Of a DNA stretch of 20,000 nucleotides, positions 4,038 to 15,322 are shown one piece after another. Source of the DNA: an uncultured virus (IMG/VR IMGVR_UViG_3300046468_001198) (Duplodnaviria; Heunggongvirae; Uroviricota; Caudoviricetes); IMG/VR virus record IMGVR_UViG_3300046468_001198. One strand, written 5' to 3'. Under the pieces are notes generated by a model, which saw only the letters and a program-made list of their open reading frames with translations, was not told where the DNA came from and did no database searches. The position numbers and the translations under genes are program-made. How positions within the stretch are numbered: the stretch's first letter is position 1; each line of letters starts with the position of its first letter.

Positions 4038-5009
4038 TTATAATCCGTTTGGTAGGATTACATAGTGTATGGCAAGTACCAGTGCAACTGATGCACCTAA
4101 CCCTACCATCATCTTACCAAAGTCTTTTGCCACAAGTGGAAAGATAGACTTTGTTTTTTGCTTACCAAAGTAAGTAGCCATTGCTAGTTCTCTACCTGCA
4201 AGTAAGCCTACGAACACCCACGTTGTTGACATAGGAATATCATTAAGCTCTTTAAAGAAGTACAAGCACATCCAATAGAACAAGTCAATCAATGTTGCTG
4301 ACCGAACATATCGTGTGTTGTGTTTCTCTAAAACGATCTGCTGTATGCGACCGCCTTTTTCTCTAAACATAAAGAACAAGCCTGCAACAAATACTACACT
4401 GATCATTAACATTAGATCAACTGGAATAACTCTTGGAAGGAACACTGCTATGTTAGCCATATCGTGCGACAACCAAGTCCACCATAGTCCGCCTGTTGCT
4501 ACCCATTGGGCGATGCGCCAGAACCGTTTGTTGCCTTCGTCTACAGGTTTTGTTTCGTCATACCATTGTCCAAAGTACTTGTGTATTGCAAACCATATAA
4601 AGTATGCAAATGCGGCCGCAACACCGTAGCCCATAATCGATTTCATAAGCATTTTCTCCAACACAAAAGTTGAAGCAAATACTGATAACACCAAGAACGA
4701 TGTTGACACTGGTACACCTATTCGCGTTAGTGCAACTAGGATTGCTGGTGCGGCGGCGTGATACCATTGTACCTCTTGCCAGGGTATTTTGTTTAGTCTT
4801 CCGTAACTGATGTCTCCACCATTTACTGTCCAACCATACCATAAGGTTGCAAGTAACACTGCACTTGCGGCTCCCCATAATACTTTGTAGTTGAATCGCT
4901 CATTGTTTGATGCCATCCAAGTACCGAGCGTTTGTACTGAATCATTTGCAATAACCGCGTATGCGGCTAACAGGAACCCGACTAGGCTCCATAAGGTGAG
5001 TGCGTCCAT
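4038..5009 (-). CDS. Multi-pass membrane protein with PiT/PHO4-like (inorganic phosphate transporter) signatures
   Basis: Many TM segments. Two internal repeats resemble PiT motifs: VIANDSVQT...GVPVSTSF and SHDMANIA...IPMSTTWVFVG (cf. GANDVANA / LPVSTTH). SD AGAGGAG. The substrate is inferred. Confidence 0.65.
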   Translation of the reverse strand: MDALTLWSLVGFLLAAYAVIANDSVQTLGTWMASNNERFNYKVLWGAASAVLLATLWYGWTVNGGDISYGRLNKIPWQEVQWYHAAAPAILVALTRIGVPVSTSFLVLSVFASTFVLEKMLMKSIMGYGVAAAFAYFIWFAIHKYFGQWYDETKPVDEGNKRFWRIAQWVATGGLWWTWLSHDMANIAVFLPRVIPVDLMLMISVVFVAGLFFMFREKGGRIQQIVLEKHNTRYVRSATLIDLFYWMCLYFFKELNDIPMSTTWVFVGLLAGRELAMATYFGKQKTKSIFPLVAKDFGKMMVGLGASVALVLAIHYVILPNGL

Positions 5010-5081
5010 TAGTTTCTCCTCTGCTTGACGGCTTTACCCCGTCGCTCACATAATAAGGTAGGCTCGACGTTGCCTACTGAT

Positions 5082-5115
5082 TATTTATAATACAAAACTA
5101 TTTGTAAAATGTCAA
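5082..5115 (-). promoter_or_regulatory. Composite sigma70 + T4-type late promoter for the PiT-like gene
   Basis: Minus strand TTGACA (5115-5110), 17 nt, TATTAT (5092-5087), overlapping a perfect TATAAATA (5089-5082). Confidence 0.7.
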
Positions 5116-5125
5116 CCGAAGATGG

Positions 5126-5192
5126 TATGCACAATATGCATAACGAGTATTTGAAAAATGCATTTGATTTATGCTCAAATAGACGTTATAAT
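5126..5192 (+). promoter_or_regulatory. LysR-type dyad pair plus sigma70 promoter for the small-protein operon
   Basis: Perfect dyad TATGCA-CAATA-TGCATA (5126-5142, T-N11-A). A degenerate copy ATTTG-AAAAA-TGCAT lies 22 bp later (5149-5163) and abuts TTGATT (5164-5169), 17 nt, TATAAT (5187-5192). Confidence 0.65.
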
Positions 5193-5217
5193 AAAGTTAC
5201 TTTTAATAAATAAGAGT

Positions 5218-5365
5218 GAATAGGGCAGTAGTGCTGTACTATTCGACACACATAGACACATTGGATAGACAATGCGGATTATCCATCCGTTACAAGCGAT
5301 TGACGGCTACCAAAGGTAGTTGCACCGCCGGGGAAGTTCCGGGGTATTGCTTTCCTCAAGCATCC
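5218..5365 (+). ncRNA. Candidate structured 5' leader or sRNA (five hairpins)
   Basis: No credible ORF and locally GC-richer. Stems at 5218-5244, 5262-5290, 5296-5328, 5328-5342 and 5348-5362. No RNA family recognised. Confidence 0.5.
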
Positions 5366-5390
5366 TAAAAACTTTATCAAGGAGAAAAAA

Positions 5391-5567
5391 ATGTTAAAAG
5401 CATTGAATGGCCTTGTGAGTTTACTTGGAAACCCACTTCCGACTAGGAAGTTTGAAAAAGAGATGCTCACTTACGCCAAAACAGAGTACGGAAAAGATTG
5501 GCAGTATGCCTATTCTTATATGCTATCGCACAACGGCCGCGGCCCAAGAGCGGGAGTATACAACTAA
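5391..5567 (+). CDS. Small protein, 58 aa (MLKALNG...MLTYAKTEYGKDWQYAYSYM...GVYN)
   Basis: Below the track cutoff. Strong SD AAGGAG (5379-5384); its TAA overlaps the next ATG. Confidence 0.8.
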   Translation: MLKALNGLVSLLGNPLPTRKFEKEMLTYAKTEYGKDWQYAYSYMLSHNGRGPRAGVYN

Positions 5568-5827
5568 TGACACAATATGTATTAACAGCATCAAGCTGGA
5601 TTAGTGACGCCTATTGGGGTCTTGTAGATTTAGTTAAACAATGGAGACGCAACAGAGCCCGCAAGGCTATGATTGCAACAACTCGTAGAGAGTTATCCAA
5701 CCTTACTGATCATGAACTACGTGACCTAGGAATAGGTCGAAGCGATATAACAAGTATTGCAAACGGAACCTTTCATGATAACAGAATGAAAGCAAGAACT
5801 AATGCTAACTTAAAAGGATGGGTATAA
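5567..5827 (+). CDS. DUF1127 family small protein (86 aa)
   Basis: WRRNRARK...TRRELSNLTDHELRDLGIGRSDI is the DUF1127 signature. The C-terminal NANLKGWV resembles Rhodobacteraceae versions as I recall them. True start is the ATG at 5567 (TAATG overlap), not 5498. Confidence 0.92.
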   Translation: MTQYVLTASSWISDAYWGLVDLVKQWRRNRARKAMIATTRRELSNLTDHELRDLGIGRSDITSIANGTFHDNRMKARTNANLKGWV

Positions 5828-6024
5828 TGACTGCGGCAACTATTAGAGACAACACTTGGAACTTTACTTGTAAGACTTGTGTAGTTTTACGAAACACATT
5901 AATTGCAATATGGGTCGGCTTTATTGCATTTGGTGAATCAGCAGGCAGAGCGAGAGCGGCCTCTGAACTATCACGCATGGGTATGCACAAAGAAGCCAAA
6001 GCTCTTATGTTGGAGAAACGCTAA
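5827..6024 (+). CDS. Small protein, 65 aa (…GRARAASELSRMGMHKEAKALM…)
   Basis: ATG at 5827 overlaps the previous TAA; SD-like AAAGGA upstream. Confidence 0.8.
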   Translation: MTAATIRDNTWNFTCKTCVVLRNTLIAIWVGFIAFGESAGRARAASELSRMGMHKEAKALMLEKR

Positions 6025-6158
6025 TGTGGAAACGGTTTATTAAAGCAATGGAATACAGAAGTTACTGTATGGCGATAAGAGAACTAAGAAGCAGAGGCTA
6101 TTATGAAAAAGCCAACGAGATATCTGAGTTTAAACATAAAGTATACGGAACATTTTAA
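6024..6158 (+). CDS. Small protein, 44 aa (MWKRFIKAMEYRSYCMAIRELRSRGYYEKANEISEFKHKVYGTF)
   Basis: Not in the track. TAATG overlaps at both ends; GGAG SD upstream. Confidence 0.7.
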   Translation: MWKRFIKAMEYRSYCMAIRELRSRGYYEKANEISEFKHKVYGTF

Positions 6159-6229
6159 TGTGGCCTTATACTGAAGAAGAAAACGATTTCTTAAACAGAA
6201 AAATAATAGATAAAAAGGGCGGCAAGTAG
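6158..6229 (+). CDS. Micro-ORF, 23 aa (MWPYTEEENDFLNRKIIDKKGGK)
   Basis: Fourth consecutive TAATG overlap; the stop lies in the loop region of the terminator hairpin. Confidence 0.5.
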   Translation: MWPYTEEENDFLNRKIIDKKGGK

Positions 6230-6239
6230 TCGCCCTTTT
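6213..6239 (+). terminator. Intrinsic, possibly bidirectional, terminator
   Basis: AAAAGGGCGGC-AAGTA-GTCGCCCTTTT. Confidence 0.8.
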
Positions 6240-6257
6240 ACCACACACAGAGGACTT

Positions 6258-6514: not shown

Positions 6515-6946
6515 ATGAAAAAATTACTCACTACAGTTGCCCTCATGGGTCTACTATCAACCCCGGCATTTGCCGCAGACATTTCCGTCGACATGCTAAA
6601 CAAGCGTGACGATGGCGCTAAAATGGTTTACAGTGAAGACATCTCAGTTATCGAAGTAGGAGATTCAATCACATGGTTGCCAACATCAAAAGGTCACAAT
6701 GTAGAATTCATTGCTGGGCCAGATGGTTGGGACTCACCAAAGAAATCAAAACTATCAAAAGAATACACATATACATTTGACACACCAGGTGTGTACTTGT
6801 ACCAATGTACACCACACAAGAGCATGGGAATGATTGCTATTGTAGTTGTAGGTGAACTAACACAAGAAGGCGTTGATGCTATCAAAGACGCTAAGGTACG
6901 TGGCAAGTCAAAGAAGAAACTAAAGGCACTATTGGCTGACCTATGA
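6515..6946 (+). CDS. paz: Pseudoazurin (type 1 blue copper protein) with signal peptide
   Basis: Signal peptide ending AFA; copper ligands in GHNVE (His) and YQCTPHKSMGM (Cys, His, Met); VDMLNK...MVYS N-terminus and C-terminal helix typical of pseudoazurins. Confidence 0.9.
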   Translation: MKKLLTTVALMGLLSTPAFAADISVDMLNKRDDGAKMVYSEDISVIEVGDSITWLPTSKGHNVEFIAGPDGWDSPKKSKLSKEYTYTFDTPGVYLYQCTPHKSMGMIAIVVVGELTQEGVDAIKDAKVRGKSKKKLKALLADL

Positions 6947-7140
6947 GTAAGGTAACTGAAGATGCACAAAAGCAAGCCGAAGTTGCATTTGACGGCTTCA
7001 TCTTGTGGAGCAAACGCACTACCTATGCTTCAATAGCATTTTTGTTTATTGTTGCAAGTTGTAACTTTGGTGTTGAAGATGATACCTATCCAGGATACAA
7101 CGGAGAACAGTATAGCCCAACAGGACTAAGTACAGACTAA
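6943..7140 (+). CDS. aa3-type cytochrome c oxidase subunit IV-like membrane peptide with an acidic C-terminal extension
   Basis: QAEVAFDGFILWSKRTTYASIAFLFIVASCN resembles the QExTFxGFx+W...N pattern of Rhodobacter/Paracoccus subunit IV; ATGA overlap with paz. Confidence 0.55.
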   Translation: MSKVTEDAQKQAEVAFDGFILWSKRTTYASIAFLFIVASCNFGVEDDTYPGYNGEQYSPTGLSTD

Positions 7141-7491: not shown

Positions 7492-7520
7492 CTACACACA
7501 TACACACAAAGGAGAATATA

Positions 7521-9821: not shown

Positions 9822-11006
9822 ATGATAACCAAAAAACCTTTTCAAGATAAAATTAACGATCTAAAACAGGAAGGCAAGTACCGTGTGTTCAATGATATTC
9901 TCAGAGAGCGCGGAAAGTTTCCTAAAGCGATTTGGTACGGTAAGTATGCAATCAAAGAGATTGTAAATTGGTGTAGCAATGATTACCTTGGAATGGGGGA
10001 AAACAAAGTTGTCATAGATGCAATGCACACTGCACTAGATCAAACTGGTGCAGGCAGTGGTGGTACTCGTAATATTGGTGGTACTTCACACTATCACGTT
10101 GCATTAGAACACGAGCTGGCTAAGTTACATAACAAGGAGTCAGCTTTACTTTATACGTCTGCATATGTAGCAAATGAGTGGACGTTAGTTTCTCTTAAAC
10201 AAATCGTTTCCGACATTGTGTTTTTAAGTGATAGCATGAATCACGCAAGCCTTATACAAGGTATACGTCACAGTGGTGCCGACAAATTAGTTTGGAAGCA
10301 CAACGATATAGAGGATCTTGAAGATAAGTTAAAACAGTGTTCAGGTACTCCATGCATAGTATTTGAATCCGTGTATAGCATGGATGGGGATGTAGGACTT
10401 ATCAAAGACATTTGCGATTTAGCTGAACGTTACGGTGCGATGACCTATATAGACGAAGTACATGCCGTTGGGCTGTACGGAAACACTGGCGCAGGTATCT
10501 GCGAACAGATAGGGGAAGATCGAGTTGATATAATCAACGGAACGTTAGGCAAGGCTTATGGAGTACAGGGCGGATATATAGCAGGGGATGCTGTCATCAT
10601 AGATGCTGTCCGCTCTGTTGCTTCAGGCTTTATTTTTACTACGTCAATGTCTCCAGTCACTTGTGCTGGAGCATTGGCTAGTATAAAATATCTTAAAGAC
10701 CACAATGAACTTAGGGAACAACACCAACGTCAAGCAAAGCGTCTTAAAAAAGGCTTTGAAGCAAATGGTGTCGAAGTTGCTGAAACAACAACAACACATA
10801 TTATTCCTGTAATGATACGTGATGCTGTAAAATGTAAAGCAATTAGTGATAAACTTCTAAATGATTATGGAATTTATGTTCAACCAATTAATTATCCAAC
10901 GGTGGCTGTAGGACAAGAACGACTACGTTTCGCTCCTACACCAAAGCACACTGATGCAATGATTAGTGAATGTGTAAAGGCAGTAGCTGAGTGTTTAAAA
11001 GAATAA
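9822..11006 (+). CDS. hemA: 5-aminolevulinate synthase (PLP-dependent, Shemin/C4 pathway)
   Basis: [63 protein letters not shown] (PLP lysine), GFIFTTS and QPINYPTV...ERLRFAP are ALAS-specific motifs. Confidence 0.96.
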
Positions 11007-14477: not shown

Positions 14478-15322
14478 TGTCCTACACCTGACCTCCGATA
14501 TGCTTCCTCCCATTCATCTAAACTCATAGGGTAAGCATGACTTGTTTCCCATCTTGCCATATTAGTTGCTAAGGCAATTGCCGCATCTTTGTTTGCAAGA
14601 TAGTTACCAACAACTTCGCCTGTGTTTATTCCTCTTCTTGCTAACCATGCAATGTATGTGCTTGCATTGTTGCCGCCGGTCCATCTTCTCATAGCTTCTG
14701 CAACTGTTTTGTTGACGTACATACTGCCGCCTAATAATGCAAACATAGCCGCGCCACCTGAAACTTTGTCAGGAAACTGTGCAATAAGATGTCCGCCGCC
14801 AATGACGCCGCCTCGTGTTCCTCCAAAGCGTGATTGCCATCCTGCTGGGTACATGCCGCCTGGGTTGTTGTATCTTACTGTTGCTTTATTTGATTCTCTA
14901 CCATTAAGGTTAGCCCCTGCTGGTTGTATGTCATCAACTGGAACAGCTGATGTATAATCAAATGTGCTGCCGCCCATTCCTTCATTGCCTGTTGGGCTAG
15001 GGTTTTCAATTTTGTCTGCTGTAGATAGTTTGTCTAATTCTTGTTCTGACATTGTATTACCTTGTCCAGTAATATTATTGTCTTTTTTGAATGCGCTAAC
15101 TGCTCTTGTAGTCCTTGGACCGTACTTGCCGTCAATACCTGTATTACCAACTGAGTATCCTAATTCTTCTAGTCTAGTTTGCATAGACTTGACTCTCTCT
15201 AAGTCTTCTCTAGGATAAGGAGGACCTGCTTGTAAGCCGGTTTCACTTGGACGATTAGGTTCTTGTCCTGCTCTTGAACCATCATCTGGTGCTTCAATTA
15301 ATTTAAAATCACTATATCTCAT
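14474..15322 (-). CDS. Peptidoglycan-binding domain + RxNNPG-type lysozyme-like domain protein
   Basis: PG_binding_1 signature VKSMQTRLEELGY...IDGKYGPRTTRAVSAFKK; C-terminal VRYNNPGG...TVAEAMRRW...YI...MARWE. Hydrolase activity is inferred. Confidence 0.75.
   Translation of the reverse strand: MRYSDFKLIEAPDDGSRAGQEPNRPSETGLQAGPPYPREDLERVKSMQTRLEELGYSVGNTGIDGKYGPRTTRAVSAFKKDNNITGQGNTMSEQELDKLSTADKIENPSPTGNEGMGGSTFDYTSAVPVDDIQPAGANLNGRESNKATVRYNNPGGMYPAGWQSRFGGTRGGVIGGGHLIAQFPDKVSGGAAMFALLGGSMYVNKTVAEAMRRWTGGNNASTYIAWLARRGINTGEVVGNYLANKDAAIALATNMARWETSHAYPMSLDEWEEAYRRSGVGQ

Follow-up and report, generated by a model that had tools for sequence, protein, structure and literature searches.

A conserved modular hairpin leader precedes a small-protein operon in uncultured large marine phages

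The stretch of viral DNA analysed here, 20,000 nucleotides long and termed the window, contains a divergent intergenic region (5010-5390) directly ahead of a run of very small genes. The question raised by this locus is whether the region encodes a conserved, structured RNA and, if so, what such an RNA would do for the genes behind it.

The locus and its small-protein operon

The contig holding the window (G000) is a viral sequence of 37.7 kb with an estimated completeness of 7%. Relatives with the same locus extend to 307 kb (G005, 87% complete), and a homologue of the T4-type late sigma factor gp55 is encoded by G005 (E 3e-13), one of five incomplete relatives; the source was therefore taken to be a large T4-like phage. 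The host is probably alphaproteobacterial, as judged from HemA and pseudoazurin, whose top plasmid matches are alphaproteobacterial (about 56% and 50%, respectively).

Positions 5213-5390 (about 180 nt) form the 5' leader of a phage mRNA that is polycistronic and encodes several very small proteins. Four small genes (58, 86, 65 and 44 amino acids) lie downstream on the plus strand, every start codon overlapping the preceding stop. The first (5391-5567) encodes a conserved 58-aa protein with a YAKTEY motif and 544 homologues, for which no match was found in Pfam, PHROG, Atlas or PDB folds; its predicted structure is helical (pLDDT 73), with no PDB match at E <= 0.001. The second gene (5567-5827) encodes an 86-aa DUF1127 protein (PF06568, E 5e-13), and the 1-nt overlap of its start with the upstream stop was seen in the operons of 42 leaders. 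The third (5827-6024) encodes a conserved 65-aa protein with an AGRARAA motif that matched no family above cut-off. The fourth (6024-6158, 44 aa), also with an overlapping start, is followed by a terminator-like hairpin at about 6217-6238. Neither the 58-aa nor the 65-aa family had detectable homology to DUF1127 (hhalign probability 0.1 and 0.7, respectively). An earlier note on this DNA had placed the RNA ahead of a DUF1127 operon; the tie to the operon stands, with the correction that DUF1127 is its second gene and not its first.

A variable host-type cassette lies 3' of the small-gene operon in L002, L010, L017 and L039, and at 6515-7140 in the window. Pfam matches within these cassettes were obtained for pseudoazurin and alternative oxidase (L002:3808-4395), together with a weak match for cytochrome oxidase subunit IV, and a PqqA-like peptide, an ATP synthase c subunit and DoxX-like proteins were recognized by eye. 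The window also carries, at 9822-11006, a phage-encoded 5-aminolevulinate synthase (HemA) with about 56% identity to alphaproteobacterial proteins.

A fixed chain of short hairpins

The region 5200-5400 folds more stably than 200 out of 200 dinucleotide shuffles (z -3.1) and contains no tRNA or tmRNA. Along the plus strand the leader opens with a 5'-terminal hairpin of variable sequence, H0 (5218-5244; pair probability 0.9 in the window), followed by a CA-rich single-stranded linker with GACA at its end (5245-5258, including the CA stretch 5245-5254). The purine-loop hairpin H1 (5259-5274), whose loop ends in AGA, is abutted by H2 (5275-5289), which has a C-rich loop. An A-rich linker ending in GAC (5290-5303), as seen in an alignment of 39 leaders (A3), leads to H3 (5304-5322), an AAA-loop hairpin that is an optional module (47 of the 93 leaders introduced below), then to H4 (5324-5345, including 5328-5342), with a purine-rich loop, and finally to H5 (5348-5362), which has an anti-SD-like loop containing CC and includes a pyrimidine stretch at 5351-5356. 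The Shine-Dalgarno sequence follows after an A-rich spacer (5379-5385, including 5380-5385). A U-run terminator is absent 3' of the hairpin array (TTTTT occurs in 1 of 93 leaders). All of the sequences quoted in the earlier note, namely its hairpins, CA linker, pyrimidine stretch and Shine-Dalgarno sequence, were found where it had placed them; its hairpin list missed H1. CA-rich stretches that resemble the CA linker, and also the spacer seen in some of the leaders, occur directly before the Shine-Dalgarno sequences of other genes in the window (6240-6257 and 7493-7520), and are possibly a general translation enhancer of these phages.

Homologues were collected from viral contigs by scans with the 58-aa protein (37 loci, and the best 80 of 178 in another scan), the DUF1127 protein (21 loci) and the H5 motif (at least 119 stretches). 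A filter requiring an H5-like motif, an upstream TAAATA and a downstream Shine-Dalgarno sequence with ATG was passed by at least 253 occurrences, giving at least 93 distinct leaders of 103-238 nt, a set that is biased towards the H5 motif by both search and filter. A protein-anchored set was drawn from 117 loci chosen by protein alone; its 49 distinct leaders contained the AGA-loop hairpin in 49 cases, a TAAATA core no more than 270 nt from the start codon in 48 and a canonical H5 in 42. A scan with another module yielded 120 stretches (57 past the flank filter, 40 distinct) and added new subfamilies with other H5 stems. The fold scored z <= -2 against shuffles in 55 of the 93 distinct homologues.

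Alignment A3 comprises 39 of the 93 leaders, picked for the architecture of the window, and H4 and H5 are invariant there by selection. The five-hairpin model paired 96.5% of 1101 cells in this alignment, and pairing dropped to 27-39% when the partners were slid as a control. Within H1-H3, 84 both-side changes were counted versus 22 in shuffles, with 0 of 500 shuffles as high, where these totals are of sequences and not of independent events; two other measures of covariation, based on numbers of pairs or of types, gave weaker results (36 and 16 of 500 shuffles, respectively). Covarying pairs made up 2 of 5 in H1 (97.8% paired), 3 of 5 in H2 and 4 of 8 in H3 (96.8% paired). The stems of H4 and H5 vary compensatorily between subfamilies: H4 has many stem variants and an AGA-ending loop in other subfamilies, and H5 has changes on both sides of its stem with CC kept. 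The leader was thereby shown, for H1-H3 by covariation, to fold into one fixed chain of short hairpins, and the proposal of a conserved structured RNA is borne out by these homologous leaders and their covarying stems.

The chain is modular. In 75 of the 93 leaders the 5' segment has a folding energy of -3 kcal/mol or lower, H0 being conserved in shape and not in sequence. The CA linker is present in 57 of the 93; in 31 others (L349-L465) its place is taken by a highly conserved hairpin module that combines a short stem with an A-rich loop. AGA-loop hairpins with a G-C closing pair number 1.5 per leader versus 0.03 in shuffles (93 leaders), and they comprise 45 stem types in 0-4 copies per leader, usually with GAC in front. 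At the H2 position, abutting H1, the loop contains CC in 49 and is of the AGA type in 10 of the 76 parsed leaders. The last hairpin keeps CC in its loop. Across 103 loci (80 distinct) chosen without the H5 motif, the distance from its end to the AUG is almost always 20-34 nt, with 69 nt in two; in about nine of the loci the simple parser took another hairpin. The retention of CC across subfamilies supports a further part of the original proposal, a conserved C-rich loop close to the ribosome-binding site. The loop word GAAAGAC showed no genome-wide enrichment in five relatives. One strong copy of the leader was found in each of G000 and G005, and a second candidate in G005 (E 0.25) was on inspection not the leader.

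The earlier note had also read the leader as a two-state switch between a helix at 5262-5285 and one at 5274-5290. Complementarity for such a switch exists, with 6-7 pairs in the window; 20 of the 76 parsed leaders allow six or more pairs, and the central three pairs can form in 31-36 of the 39 aligned sequences. However, as a conserved element it was rejected: no compensatory change was found among the 39 aligned homologues (500 of 500 shuffles as high), 53 of 234 cells of the alternative helix in A3 were unpaired (77% paired, below the shuffle mean), and at most three pairs are possible in 45 of the 76 leaders (17 of the 93 were not parsable). The 5' arm of the alternative helix is held within H1, a competing hairpin. 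In the ensemble of the window, H1 and H2 each have a probability of 0.76-0.87 versus 0.02-0.03 for the alternative helix, and the best structure containing that helix is 3.3 kcal/mol less stable (-5.8 versus -9.1 kcal/mol). The conserved mutually exclusive helices of a translational riboswitch or RNA thermometer were thus not found in these leaders, and the two-state reading is hardly credible.

Pairing of the H5 loop with the Shine-Dalgarno sequence is another matter. An H-type pseudoknot that temperature, a metabolite or a protein could open would form a translational on/off switch. Its geometry appears plausible, and the end of H5 is 20-34 nt upstream of the AUG in nearly all of the 103 loci. 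At least five contiguous pairs are possible in 72 of the 93 leaders, a set biased by the search motif, and the isolated duplex has a predicted stability of -6.1 kcal/mol. Such a switch is nevertheless doubtful, because only 2-4 pairs are possible in the remaining 21 of 93, the Shine-Dalgarno sequence does not follow changes in the loop and no compensation was seen, two loci have the 69-nt spacing, and no riboswitch or thermometer in Rfam matched even at E <= 10. The nested ensemble, a model blind to pseudoknots, assigns the pairing a probability of 0.01-0.03, and in nested folding at 4-37 C no loop-SD helix was seen to open (probability <= 0.006).

Promoters, distribution and relation to known RNAs

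Three promoter elements precede the leader on the plus strand. A LysR-type DNA box, TGC-N7-GCAT-N8-T, lies at 5127-5150, placing GCAT...T at -61 to -49 of the start predicted for a sigma70-like promoter at 5164-5192 (-35, 17-nt spacer, -10; 10 of 12 consensus matches), and a T4-late-like promoter box with one mismatch to TATAAATA lies at 5204-5212. TGC-N7-GCA was present upstream in 82 of the 92 leaders having 130 nt of upstream sequence (4.6% in shuffles), and the final T of the box in 76 of 77. The offset of the sigma70-like promoter from this box was fixed in 37 of 42 well-scoring homologues (at least 8 of 12 matches; 42 of 77 boxes). The exact TATAAATA stands before 56 of the 93 leaders; genome-wide it was not above a reversed control, which is a weak control as the two words overlap. 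The spacing between the LysR-type box and the late box is about 58, 68, 78 or 89 nt, that is, in steps of one helical turn. On the minus strand, a divergent gene for a 323-aa membrane protein (4038-5009, no Pfam match) has an exact TATAAATA box of its own at 5082-5089 and a short hairpin leader (within 5010-5089), and this unit and the leader operon adjoin in several, not all, relatives.

By sequence, the T-N11-A box with GCAT...T at about -61 to -49 of the sigma70 promoter is of the LsrB/VtlR type. The LsrB motif of the abcR1 promoter is reported at the same position, -61 to -49 (PMC8844928), and the abcR1 and atu1667 promoters present the same T-N11-A box and GCAT...T position on a sigma70 promoter (PMC8844928, PMC7486931). 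In Agrobacterium, VtlR is described as directly activating a gene for a small protein (PMC7486931). The phage boxes mostly lack the TG of the published LsrB consensus, with TG in 6 of 77 and the full GCAT-N3-TG-N3-T in 1 of 77, and binding is a prediction. Of 76 bacterial DUF1127 loci, 57 have a similar box in front (36 of 55 when Shinella is set aside; 18% in shuffles). No LysR gene was found in the five incomplete relatives, so the factor would be that of the host.

The array sits right behind these promoters and ahead of the long variable cassette, its place between promoters and Shine-Dalgarno sequence being fixed, and its 5'-terminal hairpin is kept in shape only. These features would suit a leader that merely shields the mRNA from nucleases or aids polymerase read-through (antitermination), with no specific feedback. 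That explanation is improbable, as it leaves the fixed loop sequences on 45 different stems unaccounted for. The leader loops bear a resemblance to boxB and H5 to boxA, which was rejected because the H5 stem variants break it.

The leader was always found directly before the small-protein cassette, the first gene being YAKTEY in 86 of 93 cases, DUF1127 in two, DUF3563-like in two, and cut or mis-called in three. A DUF3563-like gene (PF12086) is the first behind the leader in some relatives (L352, L444, L454). DUF1127 also follows the leader directly in 8 of the 40 distinct leaders from the scan with another module; of these and the two among the 93, three were checked by Pfam. It was recognized downstream in 52 of the 93 loci, of which many are truncated. 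Only five loci came from a scan with the L066 DUF1127 protein. No match to the leader was obtained by blastn against 50,697 GenBank phage records, and the leader model R1 had no match in 151 genomes of the roseobacter family of G001 (Phaeobacter-titled), with 20 candidates scored per genome. When R1 was run against 57 of 80 genome-contig DUF1127 loci and L058, the sole match was L258, and the other 56 loci were negative. L258 (G004:C9) has the full leader and operon on a phage-like contig binned in a MAG titled Flavobacteriales; this sole directly host-labelled record is probably a mis-binned phage contig.

The cassette also occurs without this leader in Methylophilales phage Melnitz and in L058, and the small proteins therefore do not need the leader. 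Melnitz (MZ577097.1, L347:960-1671) is a cultured T4-like phage with a YAKTEY-like short motif, an AGRARAA-type gene and DUF1127 behind TATAAATA; its own leader is different, about 100 nt long and resembling one long hairpin, and the phage is a possible experimental system. Its first gene has only the short motif in common with the 58-aa family (E 0.05).

In four metatranscriptome runs, each from a different study, there are contigs that cover the leader, at a depth of 2-110 at 5208-5308 and of 0-2.5 at 5107-5207. These are contigs that possibly include DNA and that come without a silent control, and they give a weak hint that the leader is transcribed. The low coverage at 5107-5207 was considered and rejected as a marker of the start site, the data being contigs and the promoter region diverging faster than the leader.

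Comparison with Rfam 15 gave no match in the window at the gathering threshold, in agreement with the earlier view of the RNA as unassigned; at E <= 10 the sole overlap was freshwater-2 (18.6 bits versus 49.9, E 6.4). The suggested kinship to CcsR RNAs was not supported, as the leader loops are without CCUCCUCCC: with one mismatch allowed, none was found in the leader, and the sole match in the window, at 14503, is at chance level. In build, the leader does resemble the cuckoo/CcsR RNAs of alphaproteobacterial CIN1 loci with CcaF1, which are described as at least two short hairpins in variable number (PMC4615179, PMC8034643). It shares with them two to four modular hairpins with compensatory stems, conserved loops of which some are C-rich, and co-transcription with an adjacent DUF1127 gene (CIN1), here the second gene. 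Unlike cuckoo, the phage leader alternates two loop types (AGA-ending and CC), has conserved GAC and A-rich linkers with a late-promoter box in front, and is usually separated from DUF1127 by the 58-aa gene. Because the defining CCUCCUCCC loop motif is missing, the leader is cuckoo-like in build yet not a cuckoo member.

A functional counterpart of cuckoo/CcsR, which RNase E releases as discrete small RNAs, would be a leader processed to a trans-acting sRNA, with C-rich loops that target host or phage ribosome-binding sites and with the DUF1127 protein as maturation factor. The modular array beside DUF1127, in which the number of hairpins and their stems vary and the loops stay fixed, is as in cuckoo (PMC4615179), S. 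meliloti CcsR RNAs are reported to originate from a 5' UTR (PMC8034643), two loops in the leader bear CC, and the upstream box is LsrB-like, as for AbcR1. However, the C-rich seed is short, with CC always and UCC usually present, versus 9 nt in cuckoo, the majority of the loops are purine-rich, the leader has no terminator of its own, and contig data cannot reveal a discrete RNA; on balance this function appears rather unlikely.

Among candidate RNAs, DNAVirus_2114 of Fremin et al. (2023) is listed with 57 marine Caudovirales sequences, a length of 77 nt, one covarying base and a DUF1127 gene within 25 bp 28 times (PMC10690425). As 8 of 40 leaders directly precede DUF1127, DNAVirus_2114, compared here by its table row alone and shorter than the 103-238 nt of the leaders, may be the 3' part of this leader. 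The S. meliloti duf1127_1 uORF attenuator (10.1101/2025.01.31.635925) is likewise reported as leader-based control of DUF1127 with an ORF upstream; unlike there, the upstream ORF in the phage is a conserved 58-aa family with a stop/start overlap. No conserved uORF, which in the duf1127_1 type is translated and has C-rich codons, was found inside the leader, where a loose internal Shine-Dalgarno sequence with a start occurs in 13 of the 93. The translational operators of T4-type phages (gp32, gp43 and RegA) are structured, protein-bound, autoregulatory leaders. The present leader is set apart from them, by description, in its multi-copy modular hairpins and in the genes it precedes. No description of the leader RNA was found among the open-access papers listed for DUF1127, phage structured RNAs, Melnitz, marine jumbo phages and cuckoo RNAs. 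It is a real, conserved, modular RNA family that is not in Rfam and that is found in many uncultured large marine phages.

A candidate protein-bound leader

The reading we favour, at about even confidence, is a protein-bound cis-acting leader, in which the loops bind protein at several sites and provide feedback on translation or stability. Transcription would start either at the host sigma70 promoter, switched on by a LysR-type activator of the host (LsrB/VtlR-like), or at the overlapping T4-type late promoter, both predicted starts being just before H0, and H0 would cap the 5' end and probably stabilize the mRNA. The repeat unit consists of GAC and a stem of 4-5 bp whose loop ends in AGA, often with a C-rich-loop hairpin alongside, and occurs 1-4 times; its free stems and fixed loops may be taken as the signature of repeated protein-binding sites. 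The likeliest ligand would be the DUF1127 protein of the operon itself or a neighbouring one, and the bound protein could then act back on translation or decay of the mRNA via the last C-rich hairpin near the ribosome-binding site.

Bacterial precedents point in more than one direction. The DUF1127 protein CcaF1 is reported to bind RNA and to affect the processing of its own transcript, with binding sites not yet located (PMC8034643). Other DUF1127 proteins bind the kinase PhoR, bacterial members control phosphate uptake, and whether the domain is RNA- or protein-binding is debated (PMC12501420). As DUF1127 proteins also act via PhoR, RNA binding by the phage protein is not assured. A more far-reaching reading, which we regard as doubtful, is that the host stress circuit of LsrB, DUF1127 and C-rich RNA has been rebuilt by the phages: a host LysR activator would turn on the two-loop modular RNA, which would be a dedicated, multi-site ligand of the phage DUF1127 or YAKTEY protein and, after processing, act in trans on host ribosome-binding sites. 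If this were true, no recognition element for a DUF1127 protein would have been defined before the AGA-loop hairpin.

The leader provides a short, repeated, covariation-defined element beside a DUF1127 gene, and binding is testable with 16-nt hairpins and loop mutants. Even if it merely stabilizes the mRNA, it is an uncatalogued RNA family that merits an Rfam entry. Its setting suggests that abundant, uncultured large marine phages connect a respiration/stress gene cassette to a LysR regulon of the host, with control at the RNA level.
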